Below, piece by piece: positions 7,678 to 36,549 of a stretch of DNA of 64,000 bases; the first letter of the stretch is position 1; the number at the start of each line of letters is the position of its first letter. Where the stretch lies: NCBI GenBank assembly GCA_023898345.1, contig CP060218.1, positions 413,510-477,509 of the forward strand, in the 5' to 3' direction. Under the pieces are notes generated by a model. That model ran no database searches and was not told the origin of the DNA. It was given only the letters and a program-made list of their open reading frames with translations. The DNA comes from Candidatus Woesearchaeota archaeon. Lineage in GTDB: Archaea; Nanobdellota; Nanobdellia; Woesearchaeales; UBA583. The position numbers were made by a program, and so were the translations under genes.

Positions 7678-7818
7678 AGTAAAGAAATCGCTAAAATATG
7701 CCTATCCCAATCGGAGCAGAGCTCCGGAGCATTACGGCAATTTTCAAGACGCGATTTCTAACTCCCAGCTGGGTGGTCGCAGCAGAGCTGCGGGGTATAT
7801 AATACCCAGCTAAGGAAT
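7678..7818. repeat. Copy A of a ~140-bp structured repeat. Its inverted near-identical partner is at 36411..36549.
   Basis: Reverse complement of 36411-36549 matches 7678-7818 with about 4 differences. Contains two similar hairpins, CGGAGC-AGA-GCTCCG and CGCAGC-AGA-GCTGCG, and CAGCTG/GAGCTC palindromes. Confidence 0.85.
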
Positions 7819-7944
7819 TAGAAAAGGAAACAGGATAAAAAATCGTTTCTAAAAAATAAAATAACAGTTGAGAAGAGAGAGAAAATCTGAAGTTCCAACA
7901 CACAAACAGAAACGCATTTAAAGTGTTAGCTTCAGAAAAGTTAA

Positions 7945-8607
7945 ATGGCATTAAAACAGAAAAGAACGTTGGAGTTGTTCAAACACAGGTTCGGATTTGA
8001 ATGGTTAGCCTTTTTTTTTCTTATCTTGCAGTTTTTTGTTCTTTTGGGAAACTTGCCTTCTCCAAGGTATGATGTTTTTTTCTGGTTCTGCAATCATACT
8101 CCTCTTATCTTTGCTCTTGCTTTTGCTTTTCGTAAAATTAATCTTATCAAGGGACTTATTTGTGTGGGGTTTCTTCCTCAATTTATTTGGACTCTTGACT
8201 TTCTTTTACGACTTTTTTTTGACTATAATTTTTTTAGAATAACTGCGTATGTCTTTGAAAACTCACTAGGGTATTGGGTTTTGCTTCCTATTGGCATTCA
8301 CATGTTTTCAACAAATCTTGCTCTTCTTGCAACATACAAGTTTCCGACAGAGAATAAAGTTTTGACGAAAGCTGCTTTGTACATTGCTCTTTTGTATGTA
8401 ACGACTATTATTCTTACGCTTCCTGAACGTAATGTTAATTGGCTTCAAGGGATTGGAAAAGAGGGTTTTCTCATAAGTTTTACAGGTTATCAACTTGTCT
8501 GGCCTTTCTTTGTTTTCTTTGTCCTTGTGCTTCCAACATATTTTTTTCAGAAATATTTGTATGAACATTATGAACAGAACAAGCTAAAAAAAAGAACAAA
8601 AAACTAA
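7945..8607 (+). CDS. Polytopic membrane protein, function unknown
   Basis: 220 aa with multiple hydrophobic segments. First gene inside repeat copy A. Confidence 0.5.
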   Translation: MALKQKRTLELFKHRFGFEWLAFFFLILQFFVLLGNLPSPRYDVFFWFCNHTPLIFALAFAFRKINLIKGLICVGFLPQFIWTLDFLLRLFFDYNFFRITAYVFENSLGYWVLLPIGIHMFSTNLALLATYKFPTENKVLTKAALYIALLYVTTIILTLPERNVNWLQGIGKEGFLISFTGYQLVWPFFVFFVLVLPTYFFQKYLYEHYEQNKLKKRTKN

Positions 8608-8608
8608 G

Positions 8609-8983
8609 TTGAAAATAACTAAAAAAATTATGAATTGTTTCTTTACTCCTATCGGCACGTTCTTAAACAAGTTCTTCTTTTCTATTTTCATGGAAAAGGA
8701 TTCTCTTCTTTCTACGTATTATGATTTGGAACTTGATAAACTTGTTGAAGAAGTAAATGCAAAGAATTTTTCAAAAGTCGTTCTTCAATTTCCTGATGGC
8801 TTGAAGTATTATGCAAGAGAAGTTTTAGATGTTTTGGAAGCGCGTACAAAGGCTCAGTTCTTTGTTTACTTTGGTACTTGTTTTGGCGCTTGTGATGTTC
8901 CTCTTCACCTTAAGGAACTTGATTTTGATCTTTGTGTGCAGTGGGGTCATAGTGTGTATGTGAAGACAAAGGGAATGTGGTAG
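8609..8983 (+). CDS. dph2: Diphthamide synthase Dph2, N-terminal domain fragment (domain 1). The real start is probably the internal Met near 8690.
   Basis: VVLQFPDGLKYYAREV...FGACDV...LCVQWGHSVY aligns with the archaeal Dph2 N-terminus, up to the HLGHSYM region. Confidence 0.6.
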   Translation: MKITKKIMNCFFTPIGTFLNKFFFSIFMEKDSLLSTYYDLELDKLVEEVNAKNFSKVVLQFPDGLKYYAREVLDVLEARTKAQFFVYFGTCFGACDVPLHLKELDFDLCVQWGHSVYVKTKGMW

Positions 8984-9007
8984 CTTTTTTATGTAAAAGC
9001 TTTCTCA

Positions 9008-9622
9008 TTAATTAATGCCTAATAATAGTAAATTTAATCCAAAGGTAATTATTTCGGTGATTACATTTGTAATGAATGCCCAAAGCATGACAACTCCTAT
9101 TAGTTGCCAATTTCCTGTATTGAATTCTCTTTTGAATAAATAGAGTGATGTATTGATTTCTTTAAGGCCATAATAAATCATTGGGAGGAAAAGTAGGTAT
9201 GCGAGTGATGCATAGGTTGTTGAAACGAAACTTAGTGCCATTGCTAAAAGACTAATTCCTGCATAGGCTGTCAATAATGGTAAGTATAGATAAATCAAAA
9301 CGGTATAAAATTCAGTTACGGATAGGGTGGTTTTGAAAAACAATTTTGTGAAATAATATCCTCCAAATAAGAACAGGATGCCTAGTATTATATTTGGAAT
9401 AAGGAGAATTAAAAAGGTTAGTAATATGTTTAAACTCTTTTCAGTTGGAACAAGGTTATATAAGGTTACATATGAGGAAATTGATAGAACCAAGGTTAAA
9501 AAGAGATGTAAAAAAAGCATGGGGACCCATTCAAGTTTACTTAATTTTTCTTCAAATTTAGTAACTTGTTCGTCTGTCATTTTCCATTTGTATAAAGTTA
9601 TGGAGTCGAATAAATTAACCAT
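9008..9622 (-). CDS. Membrane protein (204 aa) encoded on the opposite strand between the two dph2 pieces
   Basis: Highly hydrophobic multi-TM ORF. Confidence 0.45.
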   Translation of the reverse strand: MVNLFDSITLYKWKMTDEQVTKFEEKLSKLEWVPMLFLHLFLTLVLSISSYVTLYNLVPTEKSLNILLTFLILLIPNIILGILFLFGGYYFTKLFFKTTLSVTEFYTVLIYLYLPLLTAYAGISLLAMALSFVSTTYASLAYLLFLPMIYYGLKEINTSLYLFKREFNTGNWQLIGVVMLWAFITNVITEIITFGLNLLLLGIN

Positions 9623-9689
9623 TGTAGGGAGTTTAGCAATTTATCTTTTGAAATAAATTCTGTGCTCTTTTTGAGTAGTTAGGAAGGCA

Positions 9690-10487
9690 TTGAATAGTGG
9701 TGTGGTTTACGTGTGTGTCTCTCTTTTTATCGTACAAGTTTATAAGTTTTTTGAGCTTTCCTTTTTTATGAACTTGCGTTTTCTCAAAGCTTCTATTGAA
9801 ATTGATTTTCAAATTCCCGTCGATTTTACGGACTTACTCAAAACTACTTTTGAAAAAGGAAACACAAAAAATCTGGCTTTGTTCAGCGCTGTGCAGTTTA
9901 GGAAGCATCACGATGAAGTTTCTGGAATCTTAAAGGAACACGGTTTTACTTCGCAAACTTCACAACCTTTTCGGACAAGTATTGAGGGGCAACTTTTGGG
10001 TTGTGATTCTCATAAGGCTGCTTTGAAAATGGATTTAAGCGAGATTGATGGCTTTGTGTATATTGGTGATGGCTACTTTCATCCTCAGGCACTTCTTCTT
10101 GCTCAGGAATTCGAGGATGAGATTAAACCTGTTCTTATTCTTAATCCTGTTCAAAATATGTGTGAGATTCTCTCTCGTGAACATATTGAAAAATATCTTT
10201 CGAAAAAGAAAGCAACTTTGGCGGCTTTTCATTTAGCAGACCAGGTTGGTGTTTTTGTAACGACGAAATGGGGTCAGGAATATCTGCAATCTGCACTTAA
10301 GCTCAAAGAAATGTATCCTCAAAAGACTTTTTCTTATTTTGTTGGAGACAATTTTCTTGATGCTGAACAAGAGAACTTTCCCTTTGTCCAGTGCTGGGTC
10401 AATACTGCCTGTCCGCGAATTGGGCAAGATGATATTTTACGGCACAAAAAGCCGACGGTGAACCTACGTGATGTTTGGCTGGAGTGA
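9690..10487 (+). CDS. dph2: Dph2 C-terminal fragment (domains 2-3). The real start is probably an internal Met near 9768.
   Basis: QLLGCDSH, FVYIGDGYFHP and WVNTACPRIGQDD correspond to Dph2 domains 2 and 3 with their cluster cysteines. Confidence 0.6.
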   Translation: MNSGVVYVCVSLFIVQVYKFFELSFFMNLRFLKASIEIDFQIPVDFTDLLKTTFEKGNTKNLALFSAVQFRKHHDEVSGILKEHGFTSQTSQPFRTSIEGQLLGCDSHKAALKMDLSEIDGFVYIGDGYFHPQALLLAQEFEDEIKPVLILNPVQNMCEILSREHIEKYLSKKKATLAAFHLADQVGVFVTTKWGQEYLQSALKLKEMYPQKTFSYFVGDNFLDAEQENFPFVQCWVNTACPRIGQDDILRHKKPTVNLRDVWLE

Positions 10488-10538
10488 AGTTTTTGGAGCA
10501 TAGCTTTTTTAAAGGCATCTCTAATTGCACTCTTTGGA

Positions 10539-11957
10539 ATGGAAAGTTTTACAAAAATTGTAGCGACTTTGGGACCTGCCTGTGATACGGTAGAGGGAAT
10601 TGAAAAGCTTAGAAAGGCTGGCTTGAATGTTGCAAGGCTTAATTTTTCTCATGGGAGTCATGATTACTTTAGAAAGGTTATTGCAAATATTAGAAAAGTC
10701 GATACTAATATTGCAATTCTTCTTGACACAAAGGGTCCGGAAATTCGAACGGGGGATTATGAAAGCGGTTCTTTGACACTTGACTTACACGAAAAAATTC
10801 TTCTTTCAAATAAGCCAATGAAGGAAAAGCATATTCTTATTCAGTATCCGCATTTGCTTACGGTTAGTGAAGGGACAGAAATTCTTATTGACGACGGACT
10901 TGTTGAGGTTAGGGTTCTTAAAGTAGAGAAAGACCACCTTGTCGCACGTGTTGAAAATTCTGCAGTCCTTGGTTCGCGTAAAACTGTTACTATTCGTAAC
11001 CACCAGACAAAGATTCCTTTTTTGAGTCAGAAAGACAAGGAAGATATTGAATTTGGAATTGAGCAAAATTTAGATTTTATTGCAGCATCTTTTGTTAGGG
11101 AAGTTGAGGACCTTGAGCAGATTGAAGCGATTTTGAAAAAGCACAATTCAAGTATTAAGATTATTTCTAAGATTGAACATCCGCGTGCTATTGAAAATCT
11201 TGACAAGATTATTGAGAAGTCTTTTGGGATTATGGTTGCTCGTGGTGATTTGGGTGTTGAACTTCCTGCTGAAAAAGTTCCTGAGTACCAGAGTTATATT
11301 ATTGAGAAATGTAATTTTTTTGGTAAGCCTGTTATTGTTGCAACTCAAATGCTTGAGAGCATGAAATCTGAGCCGCGTCCGACAAGGGCAGAGGTTGCTG
11401 ATGTTGCTAATGCTGTTCGTGAAGGTGCTGATGCTGTTATGCTTAGTGGAGAGACGGCAAATGGAAAGCATCCGCACAAAGCTGTACAAACTATGAACCG
11501 TATTGCTCATGAGTACCAAGATAAAATTCGAGTTAACTTAAGGGATCTTATGGAGAAAACTGCAAAAAAAAGTGAAACGAGTTCTTTGTATATGACAAAG
11601 GCAGCGTACGAAGCAACTCTTCATCTTCCTATTAAGGCAATCTTTGCTCCGACGGAAAGTGGTTTTACAGCAAGAAATATTTCTCGTTTCAGGCCTCAGT
11701 GTCCTATTTATGCGATAACTTCTGATGAAAAGGTTCACAGACAACTTCAACTTTCTTGGGGTGTCTTTCCTCTTATGAATGATTCTAAAGCAAAAAGCCA
11801 CGATGCTTGTGTAAACAAAACTGTTAAGGCATGCTTTGAAAAGAAGGAGCTTAAGAATGACGATAGTTTGCTTGTTCTCTCTGGACACGTCTCTGGAAAG
11901 AGTGGTATGACAAACATGCTTGAGATTTACAGGACAGAAGATATTTTGAAAAGATAA
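10539..11957 (+). CDS. pyk: Pyruvate kinase
   Basis: The N-terminus TKIVATLGPACDT...NVARLNFSHGSH and the MVARGDLG motif. Confidence 0.9.
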   Translation: MESFTKIVATLGPACDTVEGIEKLRKAGLNVARLNFSHGSHDYFRKVIANIRKVDTNIAILLDTKGPEIRTGDYESGSLTLDLHEKILLSNKPMKEKHILIQYPHLLTVSEGTEILIDDGLVEVRVLKVEKDHLVARVENSAVLGSRKTVTIRNHQTKIPFLSQKDKEDIEFGIEQNLDFIAASFVREVEDLEQIEAILKKHNSSIKIISKIEHPRAIENLDKIIEKSFGIMVARGDLGVELPAEKVPEYQSYIIEKCNFFGKPVIVATQMLESMKSEPRPTRAEVADVANAVREGADAVMLSGETANGKHPHKAVQTMNRIAHEYQDKIRVNLRDLMEKTAKKSETSSLYMTKAAYEATLHLPIKAIFAPTESGFTARNISRFRPQCPIYAITSDEKVHRQLQLSWGVFPLMNDSKAKSHDACVNKTVKACFEKKELKNDDSLLVLSGHVSGKSGMTNMLEIYRTEDILKR

Positions 11958-12009
11958 CTTTACTCCTAATAAGGGAAGAAGTTAAAAAAAGAACTTCTTT
12001 CTTCTTTTC

Positions 12010-13086
12010 ATGGAATTTGAAATTACTCCCAGGACGCTTCCTTATTTCTTAGAGTTGGAGAGATTGTCTTCACTTCTGAACGATAAGCTTTTTGATGCGT
12101 ACAGGCCAGTTGCTCTTCCTAGGGAGCTTCTTTCTTTTTCCGAGCCCTTGAGGACATTTGTACAAAGAAAAAGACAAACTCTCCAAGGGCTTCTTCAGAA
12201 CTTTTCTTTAGATTTTTCTTCCTTATTGGATACTTTGTATGGAAACTTTGCTACTAACTTTAATCTTGAGCTTTTTTTTGCATCTGAAAGAAGTCTTAAG
12301 CGTTTAGGTAATCCTTATTTTAGTTCTTTATTTTCACAGTACGATCCTTTTGAACAAAGTTTGCCTCTGAGTTTTTTCTCTTCTCTGGATACTTTCCTTG
12401 CTGATTGTACGGAGTCTTTACCTTTAACTCAAACTTCTCATACTGCTCCTTTTACGCTTCCTTTTACCTGCTTCTATACTGGTGAGGATGATGGAGAAAT
12501 TTTGATTGATGGTGTAAAGTCGGGAGATCTTTTTTTGCCTTTTGAGGATCCTTTTTTTTTAGATGCAAGAACTCTTCTAGAATCTTCTGAAAATGACACT
12601 CTTTTTGCTTTGGTTAATACTTTTCATGATTGGAGAAGGGACGACTCAACCTCCACTTCTGATTTTAATCTCTATCTTCTTAGAGCTCTTTCTCTTCATT
12701 TGGATCCTACGTACCAGAAGAAAGCTCTTTTGGAAACTTATTCAGATTCAGAATTACTTGTTACCTTAAAATTTGATGGGCGTATGTTTGGAGATGCAAA
12801 GCTTGTTTTTAATTATATAGAAGATATGGTTAACGCTTCTTTGCTTAGAGCTTATTCTTCTGGAGAGGCTTATTCTGCTAAGGCTACTTCAAATCGGAGG
12901 GCAAGGGATCTCATTGATGAAACTGCAATTTCTCTTGAGGAAGAGGGCTTTTATCCCTATTTAGTTCTTGAAACTCTTTTATCTTCTTCTACAAATAGAG
13001 AGGAAACAGCACAAGCCCTTAATGGAATTTATCACACTTTGTCTTCTCTTCTTGAACTTAGTTGGAGAAAGTCTTCTCGCTATTGA
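12010..13086 (+). CDS. Hypothetical protein, Ser/Leu/Phe-rich (358 aa)
   Basis: Long uninterrupted ORF with no competing frame on either strand. Composition is atypical (K-poor) relative to its neighbours. Confidence 0.45.
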   Translation: MEFEITPRTLPYFLELERLSSLLNDKLFDAYRPVALPRELLSFSEPLRTFVQRKRQTLQGLLQNFSLDFSSLLDTLYGNFATNFNLELFFASERSLKRLGNPYFSSLFSQYDPFEQSLPLSFFSSLDTFLADCTESLPLTQTSHTAPFTLPFTCFYTGEDDGEILIDGVKSGDLFLPFEDPFFLDARTLLESSENDTLFALVNTFHDWRRDDSTSTSDFNLYLLRALSLHLDPTYQKKALLETYSDSELLVTLKFDGRMFGDAKLVFNYIEDMVNASLLRAYSSGEAYSAKATSNRRARDLIDETAISLEEEGFYPYLVLETLLSSSTNREETAQALNGIYHTLSSLLELSWRKSSRY

Positions 13087-13145
13087 AGAAAAAATATCGC
13101 ACTTGTAAAAACTTATAAAGAAAGCATAGCCCTGCTTTTTTTTAG

Positions 13146-13841
13146 ATGGCACTTTACATCATGTCCGTTGGCGGTTCCCTCATTGTTCCTGAGGAAATAG
13201 ATACTGAGTTTCTTGCTTCTTTCAAGCAGTTTATTATTAAGAGAATTGAGAAAGGAGATAGGTTTATTCTTATTGCTGGAGGGGGCAAAACCTGCAGAAA
13301 ATATCAAAAAGCAGCAGCTGAAGTTGCAGGTATAGATAATGAAGAAAAAGACTGGCTTGGTATTCATTCATCAAGGCTTAATGGGCATCTTCTTAGAACA
13401 ATTTTCAAGTTACATGCTCATCCAAAGCTTGTCACAAACTATGACCTTGACCTTAAGGAGATTGGAACTGAATTTAGGGAAAATATTCTTGTAGGGGCAG
13501 GATGGAAACCTGGCTGGTCGACGGACTATGACGCTGTTCTTATGGCAAAACAATTTGGAGCTACAACAATTATTAATCTTTCAAATATTGATTATGTTTA
13601 CACTGATGATCCTCGTGTGAATCCTGAGGCTCAAAAACTTGAAAACATTAAATGGAAGGAGTTTCAGGCGATGATTGGAAGTAAGTGGGATCCGGGGATG
13701 AATGCTCCTTTTGACCCAATTGCAAGTAAGGAAGCAGCTGCAAATAATTACACTGTTGCTATTCTTAATGGGAAAAATCTTGCAAATATCTACAATTTTA
13801 TGGAAGGAAAAAAGTTTAAGGGTACTATTATTAAAAATTAG
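13146..13841 (+). CDS. pyrH: Uridylate (UMP) kinase, archaeal type
   Basis: GGSLIVPE, IAGGGKTCRKY and GWKPGWSTDYDAV...NIDYVYTDDPRVNP match archaeal PyrH. Confidence 0.8.
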   Translation: MALYIMSVGGSLIVPEEIDTEFLASFKQFIIKRIEKGDRFILIAGGGKTCRKYQKAAAEVAGIDNEEKDWLGIHSSRLNGHLLRTIFKLHAHPKLVTNYDLDLKEIGTEFRENILVGAGWKPGWSTDYDAVLMAKQFGATTIINLSNIDYVYTDDPRVNPEAQKLENIKWKEFQAMIGSKWDPGMNAPFDPIASKEAAANNYTVAILNGKNLANIYNFMEGKKFKGTIIKN

Positions 13842-13844
13842 TTT

Positions 13845-14147
13845 TTACTCAAATCCTTTTTTACGGAAATGCTTTACAAATTCTGTATTGAGTGCGTCAA
13901 AGTTACACTGAGGATTATTTGTGATTGTTCTTAGATTGTATATGACTCGAAAATTTATGGCTGCTGGTTTTTCTTCAACGTGAAAGTCTTGTAATTCATG
14001 TTTTTTTATGAGGTGCATGACGAGATCGGCAAAATGTCTTCTTTGCTCTTCATTTTCATACTTTATAAGAAATGTGTGTGCGATTGATTTTGGTTCTGGG
14101 TCACGGATGGTTGGGTTTTTGTCGTTCTCGGGGAATTCTACACTCAT
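13845..14147 (-). CDS. Hypothetical protein (100 aa) co-transcribed downstream of srp54
   Basis: Its ATG overlaps the srp54 TGA stop (ATGA at 14144-14147). Confidence 0.45.
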   Translation of the reverse strand: MSVEFPENDKNPTIRDPEPKSIAHTFLIKYENEEQRRHFADLVMHLIKKHELQDFHVEEKPAAINFRVIYNLRTITNNPQCNFDALNTEFVKHFRKKGFE

Positions 14148-15553
14148 CGTCTTGCACCTTTCATCATTTTTTTGAGGTCTTTTTGTTTCATTCCCATTTG
14201 CTTCATCATCTTCATCATGTCTTGAGGATTCTTCATGTTCTCCATGTCCATATCTTCCATATCACTTGGATTTTTGAACATGTGCATCATTTTCTTCATT
14301 TGCTTGAATTGTTTGAGTAATTCGCGTACGTCAGAAGCATCTGTTCCTGATCCGCTGGCGATTCTTCGTGTTCTTGAAAAGTCAATTTCTTCAGGATGTT
14401 TTTTTTCATAGGCAGTCATTGAATCCATTACGTAACCCCAGACTTTTAATTTTTGTTCTTGAACGGAGAGTTGTGACTTATCTATGTTCATTCCGCCAAG
14501 TCCTGGAATCATAGAGATAAGCTTTGACATGGATCCCATTTTTTTCATTGCTTTGAGTTGTTCGTACATGTCATTCAAGTCAAATTTTCCGGACATGAAT
14601 CTTTCTTGCATGTCTTGTGCTTTGTTTTCGTCAAGGGCTAATTTTGCTTTTTCTAGAAGGGCTTCTAAATCTCCCATTCCTAAGAGCTCTGATACAAATC
14701 TTTCTGAATTAAAGCGCTCAAACTCGTCAATTTTTTCTCCAACTCCTATGAAACGTACGGGCGCCTCAACAACGGCACAGGCAGACAAAGCTCCTCCTCC
14801 TTTTCCGGTTCCGTCCATTTTTGTTATGATGACTCCGTTTATGTCAAGGCGTTCTTTGAACATTTGTGCTTGCTTTTGGGCTGTCTGTCCAACATCTGCT
14901 CCGAGAACAAGGAAAGTGTCTGTCGGCTGTGCAATTTCGTTGAGTTTTGAGATTTCTTCTACGAGTTCGTCGTTGAGGAAGTCTCTGCCGGCACTGTCGA
15001 TGATAACAAGAGAATATTTTTCTAGTTGGGCTTTGAATTTTTCATAAATAGCAACGGGATCTTTTTCTTGTGGGTCTGTGTATACATCGATTTCGGCTTG
15101 TTTTCCTAATTGTTGTAATTGCTCGCCTGCTGCTGGACGCCAGGTGTCTGTGGAAAGAAGAGCCACTTTTTGTGAACGTTTCTTGAAGTAATGTCCAAGC
15201 TTTGCCGCCGTTGTCGTCTTTCCTTGTCCGTAGAGTCCTACTAGGAGTAAGCGATTTTGTTTGTCTTCTTTTAACGTAAATTCCTCTCCTTGACCTAGAA
15301 AGGAACTCAGCTCTTCATAAATAATTGTAATTAAATGCTCTTTTTTATTCAATCCTTTTGTGTTTTCAGAAACTGCTCTGTCCCGTATTTTTTTACTTAA
15401 TTCGAGAACGAGGCGGACATTGACGTCTGAACTGAGTAGTGATTTCTGAATTTCTTTGACGACTTCTTCAACTAGTGTTCTGTCGACTGTGAGGGAGTTT
15501 TTAATTTTTGAAAGTGTGTGCTTCAAAGAATCGCCTAATTTGTCCAGAACCAT
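14144..15553 (-). CDS. srp54: Signal recognition particle protein SRP54
   Basis: NG GTPase domain (GLYGQGKTTTAAKL, DTAGR) plus a Met-rich M-domain tail. Confidence 0.9.
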   Translation of the reverse strand: MVLDKLGDSLKHTLSKIKNSLTVDRTLVEEVVKEIQKSLLSSDVNVRLVLELSKKIRDRAVSENTKGLNKKEHLITIIYEELSSFLGQGEEFTLKEDKQNRLLLVGLYGQGKTTTAAKLGHYFKKRSQKVALLSTDTWRPAAGEQLQQLGKQAEIDVYTDPQEKDPVAIYEKFKAQLEKYSLVIIDSAGRDFLNDELVEEISKLNEIAQPTDTFLVLGADVGQTAQKQAQMFKERLDINGVIITKMDGTGKGGGALSACAVVEAPVRFIGVGEKIDEFERFNSERFVSELLGMGDLEALLEKAKLALDENKAQDMQERFMSGKFDLNDMYEQLKAMKKMGSMSKLISMIPGLGGMNIDKSQLSVQEQKLKVWGYVMDSMTAYEKKHPEEIDFSRTRRIASGSGTDASDVRELLKQFKQMKKMMHMFKNPSDMEDMDMENMKNPQDMMKMMKQMGMKQKDLKKMMKGARR

Positions 15554-15603
15554 GGAAGGGTCAAAAAGAACAGATTTATAAAATTTGTTAAACTTGTGCC
15601 AAA

Positions 15604-15954: not shown

Positions 15955-15957
15955 AAA

Positions 15958-28119: not shown

Positions 28120-28193
28120 GGCCCTGTAGCTTAACCTGGATAGAGTAGCGGGTTTCGGCCCCGCTGGTGGGGGTTCAAATCCCTCCAGGGTCT
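28120..28193 (+). tRNA. tRNA-Arg (anticodon TCG)
   Basis: Hand-folded cloverleaf. Acceptor stem GGCCCTG/CAGGGTC; D stem GCTT/GAGT; anticodon stem GCGGG/CCCGC with loop TTTCGGC; T stem GGGGG/CCCTC with loop TTCAAAT. No encoded CCA. Confidence 0.8.
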
Positions 28194-28216
28194 TTCATTG
28201 TTCTGACTATAGACTA

Positions 28217-28756
28217 TTGTTGTCTCTTTTCATGACAACAACTTTTATAAATCCTTCTTGCTTTACTCCATCCGACATGAGTTATCAATCAAATGCTGCA
28301 GGACTACAAGGAGTATATGGTTTTCCTCTGGACATAAATCTTTTGGAAGATGAGTTAGGAGAAGTCGTAAATTTAATGAGGCATGCACAAAGTGCAATAC
28401 CTCTTGCAAATGTGCCCATTACTCAAGCAATAAAAAACAGTGCATTTGCAGGAAAAGGGGACCAAGCCCTTTTGACAATAGGGGCCACGAATTCAAGAAA
28501 AGGAGGTTCCCTTACTCTTGTGGAACTTATTGGTGCTATTTTGAGAAAGGAATATCCTGAAGAGCCGTTTTACACTGCTTTCCAAAAGGAGGGACTTCCT
28601 CAAAATCCTTGTTTAAGGCTTGCTCTTGCATCTGGATATGAACTTGGAGATCTTTCAGATATGCAACGATCATACATTAAAAATGAGTTTTCTGGAATTT
28701 TGGATGAAATGAGTGACTACAGCAAATCTGAGCAGAGAATTCTTTATTCCAATTAA
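28217..28756 (+). CDS. Hypothetical protein (179 aa)
   Basis: ORF only. Confidence 0.4.
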   Translation: MLSLFMTTTFINPSCFTPSDMSYQSNAAGLQGVYGFPLDINLLEDELGEVVNLMRHAQSAIPLANVPITQAIKNSAFAGKGDQALLTIGATNSRKGGSLTLVELIGAILRKEYPEEPFYTAFQKEGLPQNPCLRLALASGYELGDLSDMQRSYIKNEFSGILDEMSDYSKSEQRILYSN

Positions 28757-28935
28757 AAATTTCAAATTTTCCAAAACCAATACCTCTAAATTTACCAAAC
28801 ATTTTATAAATTATTTTTGATTCACTTTTGTACTGAAGAAAGAGATGAGAAGCGGCTTATCGAGCAAAGGTCGTGGAGTGATGCTCTTGGCTCACAAAAT
28901 ATTGTATCCCTTTCTTTCTTCTTTCACATAAAAAA

Positions 28936-29313
28936 ATGGAAGACCCAGCAGAAATGTATGTTGAGGAAGTAACTCCTGCAAATGAACTAAAAGGTTTCAC
29001 AAAATCCTTCGTAAAGCGTACAAAGGATAAGCGAGAAGAGCATAAAGAAATCAAAGCAATTCTCACAGCGCTTAAAGAGAACCGACTTGTTTTAGGAACA
29101 AAAGTTACAGAAAAAATGCTAAAATCAGGCAAGACAAAGCACGTGTACATATCGTCTACTTGCGACAATCTTGTTCTGCGAAAACTCCAGCACTACTGCG
29201 CACTTGCAGAAGCTGAACTAAGCGTTCTTCATTTGAACAGTAATGAACTTGCACAAAAACTTGCAAAACCCTTTAATATCACAGTAGCATGTGAAAAGGA
29301 GGCTAAAAAATGA
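28936..29313 (+). CDS. rpl30e: Ribosomal protein L30e (L7Ae/L30e family)
   Basis: [28 protein letters not shown]...[16 protein letters not shown]. Sits in the archaeal L30e–S12–S7 gene order. Confidence 0.75.
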
Positions 29314-29732
29314 GCAGAAAAACAAATGGTCTATTCGCAGCAAAGAAGATGCTTATCAAAAGAGCGTTATTCAAGAAAAGAAGAGTGAATCCTCTTGAGA
29401 AGGCAAAGTACGATCCGCTTGAGAATGCAAACCAAGCAAAAGGAATTGTCTTGAACAAAACAGAAAGAGAAGCTAAACAGCCAAACTCTGCTTTGCGTAA
29501 GTGTGTTACAGTCCAGCTTTCTAAGAACGGAAAGTCTATTGTTGCGTTCCTTCCTGGAAATAATGCTTCAAAGTTCGTGAACGAGCACGACGAAGTAATG
29601 GTTGAAGGTATTGGTGGAATTAAAGGAAAATCCAAGGGTGATATTCCGGGAGTGAGATGGAAGGTTATCCAAGTAAATGGTCAGTCGCTCAACGCGCTTA
29701 TCAGAGGAAAACTTGAGAGGGCAAGAAAGTAA
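29310..29732 (+). CDS. rps12: Ribosomal protein uS12 (archaeal/eukaryotic S23 type)
   Basis: [20 protein letters not shown]...VEGIGG. Confidence 0.9.
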
Positions 29733-29733
29733 A

Positions 29734-30339
29734 ATGGTTCAAACTGAAATTAAACTGTACAACAAGTGGACTTTCAATGACGTTGCCGTGACAGACCTTG
29801 GTTTGCAAAACTACATCAACTTGCGACCTATTATTGTCCCAAGAACAAACGGATATTATCACAATACAGCCTTTTACAAAACGAAAATAAATATTGTAGA
29901 AAGGCTCATGAACCGTTTGCAAGTCACAGGACACAAAGGAAGGAAACATTACATTAGTTCGGGACATAATACAGGGAAAGCAAAAAAAATTTCATCTCTT
30001 ATGAAGGAAGTCTTTGAAGAGTTGGAAAAGAAAACAAAGGAAAACCCTATTCAGGTGTTAGTAACTGCGATAGAACATGCAGCACCACGTGAAGAAGTCA
30101 TTACTATTGAGCGTTCAGGAGCAAGGTATGCACAGGCAGTCGACATGTCTCCTCAGAGAAGAGTTGACTTAGTTTTGCGCTATCTTTCACAGGGGGCATC
30201 TCACAAAGCTTTCAATTCTGCAACGTCACTCAAAGAGACATTAGCGGCAGAAATCCTTGACTGTTATCACAGAGGGGACAAAAGTACAGCAATGTCCAAA
30301 AAGAACGAAATTGAGAAGATGGCAGCAGCTGCCAAATAA
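29734..30339 (+). CDS. rps7: Ribosomal protein uS7 (S5e type)
   Basis: Start taken at the ATG immediately after the S12 stop. VLVTAIEHAAPREEV...AQAVDMSPQRRVDL. Confidence 0.9.
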   Translation: MVQTEIKLYNKWTFNDVAVTDLGLQNYINLRPIIVPRTNGYYHNTAFYKTKINIVERLMNRLQVTGHKGRKHYISSGHNTGKAKKISSLMKEVFEELEKKTKENPIQVLVTAIEHAAPREEVITIERSGARYAQAVDMSPQRRVDLVLRYLSQGASHKAFNSATSLKETLAAEILDCYHRGDKSTAMSKKNEIEKMAAAAK

Positions 30340-30353
30340 AGCTAAAACATAAA

Positions 30354-30989
30354 ATGGTCTCAGACGAAAGAATCAAAACTGGAACAACGACTTTAGGAAT
30401 GCTCTTCAAAGGAGGAGTTCTTCTTGCAGCGGACAGGCGAGTAACGTCATATAAGATTGTGAGTGATAAATTCACAAAAATTTTTGATTTATCTCCAAAT
30501 GCTGTTGCAACAGTCTCAGGCGGAGCTGCTGATGCTCAACTTTTCATGAGGATTATTCAAGGAGAATTGAAACTCATCTCTCTCAAAAACGAGCGAGAAG
30601 CAAAAGTGAAGGAAGCAGCAATGATCCTTAATTCCATGCAGTACAGAGGAATTCGTTCAATGGGAAGTATTGTCGGTCTTATTATAGGGGGTTACGACAA
30701 AGGTGAAGGAGCAAGTCTCTACGATCTCTCTCCTGACGGTACCATCAGTTTAAGTGATGGATTTTTGACGACAGGTTCGGGAAGTATTTATGTTCAAGGA
30801 TTGCTTGATGATTGCTACAAGCCAGATTTAAGTGAAAAAGAAGCACTAGATCTTGCGGAGAGGGCATTCAAAGTAGCATTCAAGAATGATAATGCAAGTG
30901 GAGGCGGCTTTATTGCCAAAGTTGTTACAAAAGATGGGATCAAAGAAGCTGAGCGAAAAATTATCAAAGCAGATTTGGTGAAAGAGTAA
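30354..30989 (+). CDS. psmB: Proteasome beta subunit with propeptide
   Basis: Propeptide followed by the TTTLGM Thr1 active site, with conserved GSG and K33-like residues. Confidence 0.9.
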   Translation: MVSDERIKTGTTTLGMLFKGGVLLAADRRVTSYKIVSDKFTKIFDLSPNAVATVSGGAADAQLFMRIIQGELKLISLKNEREAKVKEAAMILNSMQYRGIRSMGSIVGLIIGGYDKGEGASLYDLSPDGTISLSDGFLTTGSGSIYVQGLLDDCYKPDLSEKEALDLAERAFKVAFKNDNASGGGFIAKVVTKDGIKEAERKIIKADLVKE

Positions 30990-30990
30990 A

Positions 30991-31284
30991 ATGGAAATTA
31001 TTAATGACAAAGTAAATACATTGCTTGGAAGGCGCGAACTTACTGTAAGGGTTGAGAGTACTGGACCCACTCTTACTCGTGGCGCTATAAAAGAACAACT
31101 TGTAAAGAAGTTGGATGAAGAAGCAGCAAGCATTTTTGTGAAAAAGATTAATACAAATTATCGTTCGCAAGATGTTCTTGTTGAAGCTTATGTATATGAG
31201 AGTGAGGAAGCACTCAAAAAGAGTTTTCCTGCTCATCTGCAAAAAAGAAATGAAAGCAAAAAAGCTGCTGGTGGGGAAGAATAA
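30991..31284 (+). CDS. rps24e: Ribosomal protein S24e
   Basis: NTLLGRRELTVRVESTGPTLTRGAIKEQL... Confidence 0.8.
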   Translation: MEIINDKVNTLLGRRELTVRVESTGPTLTRGAIKEQLVKKLDEEAASIFVKKINTNYRSQDVLVEAYVYESEEALKKSFPAHLQKRNESKKAAGGEE

Positions 31285-31286
31285 AA

Positions 31287-31457
31287 ATGTCGCGCTACAA
31301 ACATGTTAGTAAGAAAAAGAGAATTGTAAAGGCAGCACGACAAACTTCTTGGGCTCCTTACTTTGCTATCTTCAAAAAATTTGGAGTTGGAAAAAGAATT
31401 CATCCTTCAGTTATGTCTAAAAAGAGAAGCTGGAGAAGAGACAGACTTAAAATCTAA
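31287..31457 (+). CDS. rpl39e: Ribosomal protein L39e (56 aa). Not in the ORF track because it is shorter than 60 aa.
   Basis: MSRYKHVSKKKRIVKAARQTSWAPYFAIFKKFGVGKRIHPSVMSKKRSWRRDRLKI fits the L39e pattern K..KK.R.aKa.kqN...P.Wv..KT......P..R.WRR..LKv. Confidence 0.6.
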   Translation: MSRYKHVSKKKRIVKAARQTSWAPYFAIFKKFGVGKRIHPSVMSKKRSWRRDRLKI

Positions 31458-31461
31458 AGTC

Positions 31462-32022
31462 TTACTTCTTTTTAGAAAAATAGTTTTTTGCGTACTTCTT
31501 ACCGAAAGCTCTTGAAGAGAGTGAGATGGAGATTTCTGGAAATGAGAGTAATACCCACTCTACATATGTGTTGCAATTTGGGCCGGGTACAAAGTGATAC
31601 TTTTCTTTGAAAGGGTAATCTTTCAAACTTTTTTCTAAGAACTCGCCTATGTCGTGAGCTAGGGATGTTTCGTTTCCTGAACAGAACCACACGAGGGTCG
31701 AGTCAAAGGATGCTGAAGAATAGCCTTTTTTCAGTCCTTGATTTGCTTTCCAGAAAAAATCTTTGTATAGGTGGTCTGCTGAAATTCCTCTTTTCAATCC
31801 TTTTTTGTGCCAGATTTCGTAGCGATGAGTTCCTTCTGGGGAGACTGCAACAAACCAATGGTGCAGTGCAAAGGATAGGGGAAAGGTTATTGGAGAGGAA
31901 TAAAGGTATATTGCATATTTTTCATCTTTTGTTGTCATTTTTTCACTTGCAGTGCGATAACACGAGCTGCTCAAATTCTTTGTAGGCTTTGTCAAGGGAA
32001 TCATTAATAATTTTGTGGTCAA
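31462..32022 (-). CDS. PPPDE/DeSI-like putative peptidase
   Basis: HHWFVAVSPEGTHRYEIWH ... GPNCNTYVEW gives the His then NCN Cys arrangement of the PPPDE fold (from memory). Confidence 0.4.
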   Translation of the reverse strand: MTTKLLMIPLTKPTKNLSSSCYRTASEKMTTKDEKYAIYLYSSPITFPLSFALHHWFVAVSPEGTHRYEIWHKKGLKRGISADHLYKDFFWKANQGLKKGYSSASFDSTLVWFCSGNETSLAHDIGEFLEKSLKDYPFKEKYHFVPGPNCNTYVEWVLLSFPEISISLSSRAFGKKYAKNYFSKKK

Positions 32023-32527
32023 ACTTATTAGCGTATTCTAATTCTTTTCTTGCGGTTTCAAGGCGTGTCTGGATTTCTTTTTCGTCTCCGGTCCCGCGCT
32101 TTGTAAGGCGTTCTTGAAGAACTTCAAATGATGGTGGTGCAATGAAGATTGTCGTTAGTAGTTCTGAGGGGAATATTTCTTGAAGGGCAAGAGCTCCTTG
32201 GACATCTATATCTTTCATTACAAAAAATCCTTGGGTAAGTTGTTTCAAAAGAGCTTCTTTGAGGATTCCGTAATATTTGTCGTGCACCTTTGCCCATTCT
32301 AATACTTTTTTTTTTTCAATTGCTTCTTCGAATTCTTCTTTGCTGAGAAACTGATAATGTTTTCCGTCAATTTCTCCTTCTCTCATTGGTCTTGAGGTTG
32401 CTGAGAGGGGAAAGACAAAATGGGTGTAGTTCTTGAAAAATTCTTCTTGGAGGGTATTTTTTCCAACACCACTTGGTCCAATAATAACGAAGAAATGTCC
32501 CTTTATCTGGGAATGCTGTATATCCAT
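31943..32527 (-). CDS. gmk: Guanylate kinase
   Basis: GPSGVGKNTL P-loop and SATSRPMREGE. Confidence 0.85.
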   Translation of the reverse strand: MDIQHSQIKGHFFVIIGPSGVGKNTLQEEFFKNYTHFVFPLSATSRPMREGEIDGKHYQFLSKEEFEEAIEKKKVLEWAKVHDKYYGILKEALLKQLTQGFFVMKDIDVQGALALQEIFPSELLTTIFIAPPSFEVLQERLTKRGTGDEKEIQTRLETARKELEYANKFDHKIINDSLDKAYKEFEQLVLSHCK

Positions 32528-32564
32528 AGGAAAGGGAAGAGCAAGAACTTAAAAAGCTATTCTT

Positions 32565-33422
32565 TTAGCTTACTGAGCCCCAACCTGTGTCGACAACTTC
32601 TGTTTCTGTTTCTTTTGTCGGGTCGATAACTAATAATGTATTTTCTAAAAGTTGGCGTGGTTTGACACTTTGTGGGTCTGAGCGTTGAAATGTATAATTT
32701 CCTCCTGTTTGCATTGTGTAATAGTCGACAGAATAGCTAAGGCTAACTTGTAAGTTTACTGAGCGCATTGTTTTACTGAAATCTTTAAGTTTGAAGAGAT
32801 CACTGTCGTGTTCGACTACTATTTTTAATTTTTCTCCTGGTGTTGTGAATTTCTTACTTAGTTCTTTACTTGCAATAATTTCATTCTCATTTGTTATGAT
32901 GTATAGGCCTTCTATTGTTAGGTCTTTTATTTTCCGTGTGTCTGTGCTTTGTATTTTGTTTAATTCTACTTCAACTTCAAACTCATGTTCTCCTATGATA
33001 AAAGGGCTATTATATGTTACTTGTGCGCTTAGGGTATAGTCATTTCCATTGCTAAATGAAAGGAGTTTTGTTTTCTTGTCAACTGCATCTGTTACTTTAG
33101 TTTGGCAAGTATTGTCTTTCGTACAGTAGTATTCTAAATATTCTCCTTTGTTGCCACTACAACCGCCTTCGCTACGTGGCAGGTTAATGTCTACATCTTT
33201 TGGACAGTTGCAAGCATTCTCTGCAGACTCTGCAACTCCATTTCCACATTTGTTTTTTGGAATTGATTTTCCTTCACAGTTTCCAGTTTCTGGGTTGTAT
33301 GTATAGATTTCATACACGCCGTCACCATATGTACTGCAGTCTGGAGGGTTAGAAGAACAGGATGTTAGGGCTAGAAGAGAAAAAAGGAGAAGCAAGGAAA
33401 GAAGGTAAGTACTTTTTTTCAT
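32565..33422 (-). CDS. Cys-rich secreted lipoprotein, function unknown
   Basis: Signal peptide plus LALTSCSS lipobox; many paired Cys. Confidence 0.45.
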   Translation of the reverse strand: MKKSTYLLSLLLLFSLLALTSCSSNPPDCSTYGDGVYEIYTYNPETGNCEGKSIPKNKCGNGVAESAENACNCPKDVDINLPRSEGGCSGNKGEYLEYYCTKDNTCQTKVTDAVDKKTKLLSFSNGNDYTLSAQVTYNSPFIIGEHEFEVEVELNKIQSTDTRKIKDLTIEGLYIITNENEIIASKELSKKFTTPGEKLKIVVEHDSDLFKLKDFSKTMRSVNLQVSLSYSVDYYTMQTGGNYTFQRSDPQSVKPRQLLENTLLVIDPTKETETEVVDTGWGSVS

Positions 33423-33444
33423 TTTATTTAAAGGAGATTTTTAT

Positions 33445-34008
33445 TTATTCTATGCTAATTGCTATTTGTTCTGTTTTCTTCAATTCTGTTCCAGGTGGGC
33501 TAAATGTTAGGGAAAGGAAAAGCTCGTCTCCTGTTGTGCAAGTTCCGGAATCTGCTAGAATTGCTAATGTCATTGTTTGTGTATCTTTTGGATTGATGTC
33601 AAATCCTTGACCTTTTACTTGTAGCTGGCAACTCTGTGGGGAGTTAATAATTTGGCTTTGCATGGTGATAACTCCTGTAGGTAAAGCTCCTTCAAAACTT
33701 GGGATATTCAAAACACTTGTTCCTAGGTTTTGTACTTTTACAAAAAGGTATGAAGGTTTTGTTCCTGGTTTTACTTCTAGTGCGTCAGGGCCAGCAGCAA
33801 AATAGCCAGCTTCATTTTCAACTTGTTGTTTAATTCTTAACTGCGCATCGTTAAGTTGATCTTCAAATTGGTCTGAACTCTTATTAATGAGGCTTGTAAC
33901 GAAGGCAATAATGAGGCCCATGACGATAAGTCCAATAATAAGCATAATAATGAGGTTTAAACTCATCTCTATTGCTCCTTTTTTATTCTGTTGCATGGTT
34001 TTCATCAA
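33445..34008 (-). CDS. Type IV pilin/archaellin-like protein with a class III signal peptide
   Basis: The N-terminus MMKTMQQNKKGA|IEMSLNLIIMLIIGLIVMGLII is a basic stretch followed by a hydrophobic helix, typical of prepilin-peptidase substrates. Confidence 0.5.
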   Translation of the reverse strand: MMKTMQQNKKGAIEMSLNLIIMLIIGLIVMGLIIAFVTSLINKSSDQFEDQLNDAQLRIKQQVENEAGYFAAGPDALEVKPGTKPSYLFVKVQNLGTSVLNIPSFEGALPTGVITMQSQIINSPQSCQLQVKGQGFDINPKDTQTMTLAILADSGTCTTGDELFLSLTFSPPGTELKKTEQIAISIE

Positions 34009-34087
34009 GTATAAGTCTTTATATTAATTTTTTATTACTGGGGAGGGTCTGAGTTTTTTCTTCGTAAAAAATTTAAACTAGGCTTTA

Positions 34088-35257
34088 ATGTTCTTTCCCA
34101 TGACAGAAGGAAAAGTGACTCCCTGGGATGTCAGTGGTACTATTGATTATAATAAGTTAATTCGTGAATTTGGTGTTGAATATATTTCAGCAGAACAAAA
34201 ACAATATTTGCTAGAACTTGCAAAGGCTAAGGGTTTGCAAGAACATATTTTTTTGAGACGAGGCCTTTTTTTTGCACAAATGGATTTGTCAGAAGTTATT
34301 AGTGCTCACAAAGCAGGACAAAGTATCTTTTTGTACACGGGACGTGCGCCAGGCGGAAGCATGCATCTTGGGCATCTTATTCCTTTTCTTTTCACGAAAT
34401 TTTTGCAAGATCTTTTTGATTGCAATTTGTATATTCAGTTTCCCGATGATGAAAAGTTTCTCTTCAAGAAAGACTTAACACAAAGTAAAGTTGATGACAT
34501 GTGTCAGAGTGATCTTTTAGATGTTGCTTCTTTTGGATTCAATATTGAAAAAACTTTTATTTTCAGAAACTCGGAATTTATTGCTCATATGTATCCGCTT
34601 GTTCTTGAAGTTTCAAAGCGTCTTACGTTTTCTCAGGCAAGAAATACTTTTGGCTTTACAAATGATTCAAATGTTGGGATGATTCATTATCCTGCTCTTC
34701 AGATAACGCCTACTTTTTTTGAGAGGGGGTTTTGTCTTATTCCTTGTGGTATTGATCAGAATCCTTATTTCCTTTTACAAAGAGACTTTGCTGTAAAAAT
34801 GGGTTTTCACAAAAATGCAACAATCCTTAACAAGTTTTTGCCCTCTCTTACTGGTCCCGCTGGAAAAATGTCGGCTTCAGATCCGTCCAAGGCTTTGCTT
34901 TTGTCTGACGATGCTGCTACTATAAAAAAGAAAATAAACAAGTATGCTTACTCTGGCGGTCGTGAAACTCTTGAGGAGCATAGAAAATTTGGGGGAAATA
35001 CGGAAATTGATGTTTCTTTTCAATGGTTGTATTATTTATTCGAGGAAGATGATATGGTAATAGAACAGATTAAAAAAAATTATGAGTCTGGAAGTATGCT
35101 CTCTGGTGAAATGAAGGCTCTTTTTATTGATAAGGTAAATGCATTTTTCTCGGACTTTCAGGCAAGGCGTGTCCAGTGCAGGGAAACAAACTTACTGAGA
35201 ACATATATGTACGAAGGGACTTTGGCAAAGGCTATGTGGGAGAGAACTGGGCACTAA
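34088..35257 (+). CDS. trpS: Tryptophanyl-tRNA synthetase, archaeal/eukaryotic type
   Basis: GRAPGGSMHLGHLIPFLFTKFLQD (the HIGH motif) and KMSASDPS (the KMSKS motif). Close to eukaryotic TrpRS. Confidence 0.85.
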   Translation: MFFPMTEGKVTPWDVSGTIDYNKLIREFGVEYISAEQKQYLLELAKAKGLQEHIFLRRGLFFAQMDLSEVISAHKAGQSIFLYTGRAPGGSMHLGHLIPFLFTKFLQDLFDCNLYIQFPDDEKFLFKKDLTQSKVDDMCQSDLLDVASFGFNIEKTFIFRNSEFIAHMYPLVLEVSKRLTFSQARNTFGFTNDSNVGMIHYPALQITPTFFERGFCLIPCGIDQNPYFLLQRDFAVKMGFHKNATILNKFLPSLTGPAGKMSASDPSKALLLSDDAATIKKKINKYAYSGGRETLEEHRKFGGNTEIDVSFQWLYYLFEEDDMVIEQIKKNYESGSMLSGEMKALFIDKVNAFFSDFQARRVQCRETNLLRTYMYEGTLAKAMWERTGH

Positions 35258-35307
35258 GGATGGATTACCAAACACTACATGTTAACTCTGTTGGCAAAAA
35301 AGACTCT

Positions 35308-36321
35308 ATGAAAAAAATTCTTCTTGTAACGGATGCCTGGTATCCACAGATAAATGGTGTTGTGAGGGTCTTTGAAAAGATAATGGGGGAACTTGAAAAG
35401 AAAGGCTACACATTTATTATTATTAGTCCAAGTCTTTTCAAAACTGTTCCACTTCCTACATACAAGGAGATAAGAATCTCTCTTTTTCCGAAAAAGAAAA
35501 TAAAAGAAATTCTCGAAAAAGAAAAACCTGATTTTATTCACATTGCGACAGAGGGGTCTCTTGGAATTGCGACAAGAAATCTTTGTAAAAAAAGGGGACT
35601 TCCTTTCACTACTTCGTATCATACTAGATTCACCGATTATGTGCATCTTAGGTTAAACATGATTTCTCCAAATACGGTGTACAAATATTTGGGTTGGTTT
35701 CACAACGCAGCGCAACACACCATGGTAAATACAAAATCAATGGAAGACGAGCTCAGGCAGTACAAGATTACAAAACTTGTTCAATGGCCTCTTGGTGTTG
35801 ATACGGGTCTTTTCATAAAGAATGAAAAAGCAAAGAAACTCAAAAATCTCAAAAAACCTATTTTTACTTATCTTGGAAGACTTGCTATTGAGAAAAATGT
35901 TGAAGACTTTCTAAGACTCGAGCTTCCAGGAAGCAAACTTATTATTGGCGATGGTCCTGACAAAAAAAAACTGGAAGAAAAATACAAGAAAAATACTTTC
36001 TTTGTTGGATATAAGCAGGGTCAAGATATTGTAGACTTACTTTCTCTTTCTGATGTTTTTGTCTTCCCTTCAATAACTGAAACATTCGGGCTTGTCATTG
36101 TTGAAGCACTTGCATGCTCTGTGCCTGTCGCTGCCTATGATGTCCAAGGTCCAAAGGACATTATCACAAATGGATTTGATGGTTTTATAGGTCCAGATCT
36201 AGGGAAAAATGCTCTTAATTGTCTTGAAATAAAAAAAACTCATTGTAGAGAAACTGCATTAAAATACTCGTGGGAAAACTCTGCGGAGTGTTTTCTTCGC
36301 AACTTGGTGCCTATAAAGTAA
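35308..36321 (+). CDS. Glycosyltransferase family 4
   Basis: MKKILLVTDAWYPQINGV...FPSITETFGLVIVEALACSVPV. The ORF track starts at 35176 and overlaps trpS; start taken at the internal Met. Confidence 0.7.
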   Translation: MKKILLVTDAWYPQINGVVRVFEKIMGELEKKGYTFIIISPSLFKTVPLPTYKEIRISLFPKKKIKEILEKEKPDFIHIATEGSLGIATRNLCKKRGLPFTTSYHTRFTDYVHLRLNMISPNTVYKYLGWFHNAAQHTMVNTKSMEDELRQYKITKLVQWPLGVDTGLFIKNEKAKKLKNLKKPIFTYLGRLAIEKNVEDFLRLELPGSKLIIGDGPDKKKLEEKYKKNTFFVGYKQGQDIVDLLSLSDVFVFPSITETFGLVIVEALACSVPVAAYDVQGPKDIITNGFDGFIGPDLGKNALNCLEIKKTHCRETALKYSWENSAECFLRNLVPIK

Positions 36322-36410
36322 CTCTTTGCTTTGAGGTAAGTTCAATGTTCTTTTTGTTTTCTTGTTTTATGGGGTCTCTGGTGTTTGTATTGGGCATCCA
36401 TTTTTCAGTG

Positions 36411-36549
36411 ATTCCTTAGCTGGGTATTATACCCCGCAGCTCTGCTGCGACCACTCAGCTGGGAGTTAGAAATCGCGTCTTGAAAATTGCCGTAATGCCC
36501 CGGAGCTCTGCTCCGATTGGGATAGGCACATTTTAGCGATTTCTTTACT
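36411..36549. repeat. Copy B of the ~140-bp structured repeat, inverted relative to copy A at 7678..7818
   Basis: The reverse complement is about 97% identical to copy A. Confidence 0.85.

Follow-up and report, generated by a model that had tools for sequence, protein, structure and literature searches.

A 64,000-nt stretch of the genome of a Candidatus Woesearchaeota archaeon (contig CP060218.1, positions 413,510 to 477,509, forward strand; referred to as the window) contains two near-identical inverted repeats, copy A and copy B, which bracket a 28.6-kb block of core genes. Each repeat very probably represents an independent insertion of a 136–138-nt non-autonomous element of the IS200/IS605 family of insertion sequences (IS), mobilised in trans by the transposase TnpA. 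Derivatives of this family that lack an open reading frame (ORF) form an established class, the palindrome-associated transposable elements (PATEs) (PMC10055086, PMC3119063). PATEs are well-understood selfish DNA, and the conspicuous repeat is explained in this way without a new RNA or a genome switch.

The existence of the pair is supported by alignment as well as by a repeat search. Positions 7678–7818 of the plus strand and the reverse complement of 36411–36549 display 97% identity over about 139 bp and are distinguished by three substitutions (A/G at 7698, A/G at 7728 and G/A at 7772) and one 2-bp TA indel located inside 7796–7801. In the repeat search, the arms comprise 122 nt at 98% and run to the indel. 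Since the next-best inverted repeat of the window is just 36 nt long at 75%, the pair is not a product of chance. Moreover, the palindromic 16-nt motif CGSAGCAGAGCTSCGG occurs four times exactly in the window, twice in each copy, with 0.13 occurrences expected, and the GC content of the element is about 50% compared to about 35% in window and genome. The similarity described in a first-pass annotation of this DNA is therefore real; its positions of difference are shifted by 1–2 nt and the spacer between the copies measures 28,592 instead of 28,593 bp. The terminal 2–3 bases (AAT) of the repeat as delimited there belong to a similar target sequence and lie outside the element. Both copies are intergenic and situated upstream of plus-strand ORFs (7945 and 36607), as had been reported, and they are oriented differently relative to these downstream genes. 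The block in between harbors the genes for SRP54, pyruvate kinase, PTH2, L7Ae, S12, S7, S24e, proteasome beta and TrpRS, in line with the earlier view that it contains core genes and is not cargo.

Mobility of the single copies, which the first-pass annotation had missed, is indicated by an empty site. In a conspecific contig (L015, SRR12358676), site A lacks exactly 138 bp and the flanks are 100% identical to the window. Because the junction (...GTAAAGCAA[GA]ATTAGAA...) is exact apart from the GA dinucleotide, which alone is ambiguous, no target-site duplication is present. A third copy, C, precedes cobW/zigA at about 485.7 kb of JACJVU010000001.1 (GCA_020637525.1, 839 kb), the contig to which the window is assigned by exact protein matches; it lies about 333 kb from copy B and is inverted relative to it. 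At these three sites of the genome, the left flank is TAAT (A), TGAT (B) and TGAT (C). Logan short-read contigs of the same organism stop within the element (L004–L010, L013, L016) and a scaffold (L002) carries NN within it, a pattern typical of repeats with several copies. The repeat pair thus comprises two of at least three PATE copies and is ordinary mobile DNA; the proposal of a dispersed repeat, one half of an alternative offered in the first-pass annotation, is borne out. A search of genome contigs with a 22-mer retrieved one contig only (L018, 701 bp), and two viral-contig scans and two plasmid BLAST searches gave no matches to the element. In addition, four Logan contigs (L080–L083) all start at one position, which precedes cobW by 50 nt and lies about 130 nt past copy C, outside the element.

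The window itself carries DDE_Tnp_1 genes at about 26.0–26.8 kb and 41.2–42.2 kb, and the repeats might be classical miniature inverted-repeat transposable elements of such IS4/IS5-like DDE transposons (PF01609). Such an origin has next to no probability, given that terminal inverted repeats are missing, that neither the empty nor the filled site displays a target-site duplication, and that the element has no similarity to any other sequence of the window.

The anatomy of the element becomes apparent when it is read on the active (top) strand (Table 1). In copy A, this strand starts with TCCTTAGCTGGG and ends with GCGATTTCTTTAC. The left part of the top strand consists of the flanking T(A/G)AT, followed within the element by TCCTTAGCTGGGTAT(TA)TATA and then by CCC-CGCAGC-TCT-GCTGCG-ACC...; the right part consists of ...GTAATG, followed by C(C/T)C-CGGAGC-TCT-GCTCCG-ATT-GGG-ATAGGCA(T/C)ATTTTAGCGATTTCTTTAC, where the element ends. 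Each copy thereby contains two similar subterminal hairpins in direct orientation on the same strand, with the general form CCC-CGSAGC-TCT-GCTSCG-ATT-GGG. Next to the hairpin feet lie two candidate guides, in copy A the left guide G_L (TATA, 7796–7799), which on the top strand adjoins the left hairpin foot on its 5' side, and the right guide G_R (top strand GTAATG, 7730–7735). The termini, GTAAAG... and ...CTAAGGA, form no terminal inverted repeats. Protein-coding genes are absent from the element, and only a spurious 86-aa ORF (7691–7951, minus strand) overlaps copy A. Folding of the exact top strands as DNA results in z-scores of -5.4 for copy A and -4.9 for copy B.

Table 1. Positions of the two element copies and of their predicted functional sites in the window. 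Strand refers to the top strand; C_L and C_R, left and right cleavage sites; IP_L and IP_R, left-end and right-end hairpins.
Feature	Position	Strand	Remarks
Copy A, ORF-less IS200/IS605-type element (PATE)	7679..7816	-	138 nt; bounds from the empty site in L015, with a 2-nt GA/TC ambiguity
Copy B, same element	36413..36548	+	136 nt; bounds from alignment to copies A and C
Target / C_L, copy A	7817..7820	-	TAAT on the top strand, directly 5' of the left end and outside the element; kept in the empty site
IP_L, copy A	7778..7799	-	Plus-strand core CGCAGC-AGA-GCTGCG at 7778-7792, GGG at 7793-7795
IP_R, copy A	7706..7735	-	Plus-strand CCC-AAT at 7706-7711, core CGGAGC-AGA-GCTCCG at 7712-7726, GGA at 7727-7729
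C_R, copy A	7679..7683	-	Top-strand TTTAC, with which the element ends
Target / C_L, copy B	36409..36412	+	TGAT
Left-end hairpin core, copy B	36435..36449	+	CGCAGCTCTGCTGCG on the plus strand
Right-end hairpin core, copy B	36501..36515	+	CGGAGCTCTGCTCCG on the plus strand; CCC/GGG foot intact
C_R, copy B	36544..36548	+	TTTAC; the YkuD-domain gene (start at 36607) follows after 58 nt

In IS608, TnpA binds imperfect subterminal palindromes of the top strand (PMC3201880). There, cleavage on the left takes place at the target TTAC, outside the element and 19 nt away from the left hairpin on its 5' side, cleavage on the right takes place at a site inside the element, 3' of the right hairpin, and the cleavage sites are recognised via pairing with 4-nt guides located 5' of the hairpin feet; upon excision the donor is resealed with no gain or loss (PMC3201880). 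The geometry of elements of the window type matches that of IS608: the left cleavage site lies outside, 13–21 nt 5' of the left hairpin, and the right one is formed by the last bases, 3' of the right hairpin. Following the rule derived from IS608 (PMC3201880), C_R of copy A is position-wise complementary to G_R, with TTAC set against AATG; over the full length of CTTTAC and GTAATG, complementarity position by position amounts to 5/6.

Relatives of the element were sought by a metagenome scan for two hairpins spaced 35–65 nt, in which the neighbouring CCC, ATT-GGG and ATG/ATA bases were left free in the search pattern. The scan returned 59 loci, compared to fewer than one expected by our own estimate. 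Four of these look like chance matches or tandem arrays and one (L062) is an end junction beside tnpA, while the remainder, about 50, are elements of about 110–170 nt. Several subfamilies are multi-copy themselves, with unrelated flanks. Close relatives (L035, L049, L056, L057, L077) adjoin archaeal genes such as those for TFB and aIF5B, and another subfamily is found in human-gut contigs with bacterial-type two-component genes. The target 5' of the left end is TTNAT in the other subfamilies. What stays constant between subfamilies is the small hairpin together with a few adjacent bases. The outer stems remain paired despite wholly different sequences, as exemplified by GAAATCGC/GCGATTTC, AAAAATCCC/GGGGATTTTT and CAAAAACCCAA/TTGGGTTTTTG in module 1 and by CCAGCTGGGT/ACCCAGCT, CAGAAATGGG/CCCATTTCT and GTTCGTTCTG/CAGAACGAAC in module 2. 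All-against-all clustering of the ORFs around the 59 loci revealed no consistently linked protein.

The collected elements permit a comparative view of the guides. Covariation links the terminal base of the element to the one beside the right hairpin foot, in at least 12 lineages and with no exceptions. In five lineages, ..ATG preceding CCC is combined with a terminal ..AC (window element, family 1a, L056/L057/L077, L062 and the Methanoperedens IS), and in at least seven, ..ATA preceding CCC is combined with a terminal ..AT (family 1b, L048, two gut subfamilies, the L049 group, the L027 group and the M. barkeri IS). Both states are found within the otherwise near-identical family 1. Judged from these sequences, the cleavage sites are predicted to pair with guides 5' of the hairpin feet, as in IS608. 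The IS608 pair is TTAC/AAAG, of which PMC3201880 confirms the two sequences only, not the pairing register. The family neatly corroborates the IS608 recognition rule by comparison and does not represent new biology.

Single loci of the family display arrangements of their own. In L035 (3200–3400) elements stand in tandem, the end of one abutting the start of the next, and in L023 (1865–2973) two complete elements of like orientation are separated by about 1 kb. In L021 (2040–2260), the motif TGATTAAGATGCAA is repeated in both flanks of a family-1 element, which may represent solo left-end remnants or preferred targets. A different use of the same palindrome is seen in L045 (40–140), where the core CGCAGCAGAGCTGCG is present three times in a tandem array with a 36-nt period (GGTCATTATTGTACCAGAGGGTCGCAGCAGAGCTGC).

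A link to a transposase is provided by tnpA genes, which were located by a Y1-motif regular expression over the retrieved DNA and then by Pfam. The ORF of L062 is assigned to Y1_Tnp (PF01797, E = 3.8e-26), and the homologues of its product include IS200/IS605 family transposases (Ca. Methanoperedens, Methanosarcina barkeri). On the coding strand, 3' of this tnpA, ...ATCATG is followed by CCCCGCAGCTCTGCTGCGATTGGG and TGTGCCGTCGCAACGTTTGAC, which abut TTTATCGTTATA and again CCCCGCAGCTCTGCTGCGATTGGG..., so that in L062 a right end directly joins a left end, within a tandem or circular permutation of 1365 bp. A Methanoperedens tnpA (P0125, 150 aa) was recovered on four independent contigs (L087–L090). 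Upstream of it, the coding strand reads TTTAT, then CTTCATTACTATA and CCCCGCAGCTCTGCTGCGGTTGGG, and downstream GTCATG, then CCCCGCAGCTCTGCTGCGATTGGGTGTGCCGTCCAACGTTTGAC up to the end (GTCATG, CCCCGCAGCTCTGCTGCGATTGGG...TTTGAC). The hairpins at the tnpA genes are those of the window element, in the orientation that had been predicted beforehand from flank conservation, and in L087–L090 the left end of the IS with tnpA likewise carries the IP_L core. Both the Methanoperedens IS and L062 share with the window element the 15-nt core and the CCC foot at both ends, the guide/cleavage logic (..ATG preceding CCCC, with ..AC at the end) and a TTNAT-type target. In contrast to the window element, they encode a 150-aa Y1 transposase, their linkers and outer stems are unrelated, and they reside in another host lineage. 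Of the carriers found to combine the identical hairpin with tnpA, those in Ca. Methanoperedens are the closest. One hairpin, predicted to bind TnpA, is accordingly common to elements in DPANN, in Methanoperedens-like archaea and in human-gut contigs. Within L062 (1–1831, JGI24131J36419_10027994), a group II intron without an ORF, about 753 nt long, splits tnpA after codon ~21 (..YHMVFCI, continued by KYRKK..), with its 5' GTGCGAC at 745 and Rfam matches to Intron_gpII at 56–132 and 1421–1497 and to D1D4-7 at 782–892.

These transposase ends also bear on the second half of the alternative offered in the first-pass annotation, a small-RNA family. In this case the copies would be paralogous members of a small structured-RNA gene family, either a small RNA or an omega-RNA-like guide scaffold, with the RNA as the functional entity. 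The element is GC-rich (about 50% in a 35% GC genome), its stems covary across subfamilies, and RNA folds are strong on both strands (z = -3.8 and -4.4), with two long stem-loops that each enclose one small hairpin; moreover, PATEs are reported to encode omega-RNAs in many cases (PMC10055086), so that the element may be transcribed. Despite these features an RNA gene is highly improbable. Neither at gathering nor at permissive thresholds (E up to 10) did the window or 20 related loci yield a meaningful Rfam match to the element, hits at the permissive setting being at chance level: the matches to tRNA, 5S and group II intron (in the window, tRNA-Arg and 5S rRNA) are situated outside it, and ARAGORN placed no tRNA within it. 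The most conserved parts are exactly the transposase-end hairpins of tnpA-bearing IS, presence and absence between strains are precise, the orientation to the downstream gene is unlike between A and B, and no tnpB is seen nearby. Further RNA candidates were discarded. An IS110 bridge RNA does not fit internal loops that are the most conserved part across subfamilies with different ends and are hence not programmable, and no recombinase gene is adjacent; for H/ACA and K-turn RNAs, neither an ACA box nor G.A pairs at the bulge were noticed on inspection by eye, with no formal test.

Intergenic hairpins handled by an HUH protein of the Y1 type are also characteristic of repetitive extragenic palindromes (REPs) and bacterial interspersed mosaic elements (BIMEs), which are serviced by a domesticated REP-associated tyrosine transposase (RAYT, TnpA-REP) and are not transposon derivatives. 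REPs resemble the subterminal hairpins of IS200/IS605 elements, and like the window element, REP/BIME repeats are multi-copy and recognised as single-stranded DNA. They are, however, single palindromes without differentiated left and right ends, often arranged as inverted pairs, whereas the hairpins of the window element are direct, its left and right ends are distinct and the guide/cleavage geometry is asymmetric. Since, in addition, both ends match a tnpA-carrying IS, the whole unit is present or absent, and no GTAG-type head was noticed in an informal reading with no dedicated test, assignment to the REP type is extremely improbable.

On the analogy of IS608 and ISDra2, transposition of the PATE can be pictured as follows. 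A Y1 HUH TnpA supplied in trans would bind both hairpins on the single-stranded top strand, where the guides just 5' of the hairpin feet would base-pair with the cleavage sites, TRAT on the left and TTTAC at the right end. The top strand would then leave as a single-stranded circle, so that the donor would be resealed exactly, and the circle would be inserted 3' of another TTNAT-like site. The inverted layout of A and B simply reflects two insertions on opposite strands. As no left-end/right-end pair brackets the 28.6-kb block on one strand, TnpA cannot move the block itself.

Comparison with characterised members of the family revealed that the window element shares with IS608 of Helicobacter pylori and ISDra2 of Deinococcus radiodurans the subterminal imperfect hairpins on one strand at both ends, the lack of inverted repeats and of target duplication, precise resealing of the donor, cleavage sites with complementary 4-nt guides located 5' of each hairpin foot (predicted for the window element), and insertion 3' of a 4–5-nt target (TTAC in IS608, TTGAT in ISDra2, TTNAT or TRAT here). 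In contrast to both IS, the window element is devoid of tnpA and tnpB and consists of just two fused ends (136–138 nt), and the foot of its left hairpin is atypical. Its right hairpin is nested in an extra long stem, and C_R is therefore located 27 nt from the hairpin foot instead of 10. With the PATEs of Haloquadratum walsbyi and Geobacillus stearothermophilus it has in common that they are ORF-less multi-copy IS200/IS605 derivatives with structured ends only and presumed mobilisation in trans. It differs from these by belonging to another subgroup (CCC-CGSAGC-TCT-GCTSCG-ATT-GGG) and by its DPANN (Woesearchaeota) host. No tnpB or omega-RNA partner of the window element was identified, the analysis covering about 87 kb of the 839-kb source contig.

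Several observations weigh against the assignment as a TnpA-mobilised PATE. Neither tnpA nor tnpB is present in those 87 kb according to gene tables and regular-expression scans, and no tnpA of the source genome was recognised among the best 120 TnpA homologues. The left hairpin of the window subfamily lacks the ATT-GGG foot typical of most relatives and carries ACCACC there, and a private C-to-T exchange (top strand) at 7728 weakens the right hairpin foot of copy A. The cleavage positions are uncertain in that they are placed to within 1–2 nt, and C_R is nearly always followed by a T, which is no requirement of a model of the IS608 type. Because the hairpin core was fixed by the search pattern, its constancy in the metagenome family is partly by construction. 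Finally, IS608 and ISDra2 are reported to display a lagging-strand orientation bias. Copies A and B, on the other hand, have opposite orientations although the GC skew is uniform along the replichore-like stretch on which both lie, and such a bias is not visible with two copies only.

The inverted arrangement had led to the suggestion that the copies A and B form a recombination switch dedicated to inverting the 28.6-kb segment, or represent the scar of such an inversion. The copies are indeed inverted, with the 97% identity given above, and, at about 97–99% identity between copies, may tentatively be regarded as substrates for homologous recombination, which would be the only route to invert the block, since TnpA cannot move it. 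However, the contigs spanning these sites lend the suggestion no support: all keep parental flanks at A or B or, for B, show a junction with copy C. A x B inversion junctions are found neither in the site-A contigs (L011, L014, L015) nor in the site-B contigs (L001, L002), and in no spanning contig is the hsdS side joined to the glycosyltransferase side. The GC skew is positive throughout 7.8–36.4 kb with no sign change across the block, a recombinase gene does not adjoin the repeats, and the element is present elsewhere in the genome as well as singly in many organisms. A switch that flips the 28.6-kb block, or its scar, has accordingly only a minute probability.

Recombination between another pair of PATE copies is suggested by two further assemblies, GCA_020430405.1 (L003/L079) and the 701-bp contig L018, in which the element stands between the YkuD and cobW genes and resembles C towards its left end and B towards its right end. 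Such a B/C hybrid has the sequence expected for the product of B x C recombination inverting about 333 kb, and thereby tentatively also speaks for the ability of the copies to recombine; a chimeric short-read join would look identical. The reciprocal B x C junction, sought via the glycosyltransferase and TrpRS genes, was not recovered, and the contig of GCA_020430405.1 ends inside the glycosyltransferase gene. The element may thus mediate a large inversion. It is improbable, but conceivable, that the genome holds no tnpA of its own, that the element is mobilised or acquired across the boundary between DPANN and host, and that its copies drive B x C inversions (about 333 kb) in a reduced symbiont genome. 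For annotation, the element is of value as it breaks short-read assemblies of this Woesearchaeota lineage and marks a strain-level insertion polymorphism.

Directly upstream of copy A, the window contains a defence island (about 1–7572, corresponding to L011 1039–9628) with low GC content at 4–7 kb (0.26–0.31). It encodes the type I restriction-modification subunit HsdR (hsdR), an unknown 452-aa protein, hsdM, a DUF3800 protein, a 90-aa ORF, a KAP-family NTPase and hsdS. Downstream, the diphthamide-synthase gene (PF01866) is apparently split into two plus-strand pieces (8609–8983 and 9690–10487), with a membrane-protein ORF of about 200 aa (9008–9622, minus strand) in between; the first piece comprises 97 or 117 aa according to the gene calls of the strains. 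The two DDE_Tnp_1 genes (IS4/IS5-like, PF01609; about 25.9–26.8 kb and 41193–42167, both on the minus strand) are unrelated to the repeat. The gene following copy B (36607–37329, plus strand) encodes a YkuD (L,D-transpeptidase, PF03734) domain protein in a DPANN archaeon, and the closest named homologues of cobW/zigA beside copy C are bacterial (Margulisbacteria, Leptospiraceae), which hints at horizontal acquisition of both genes.

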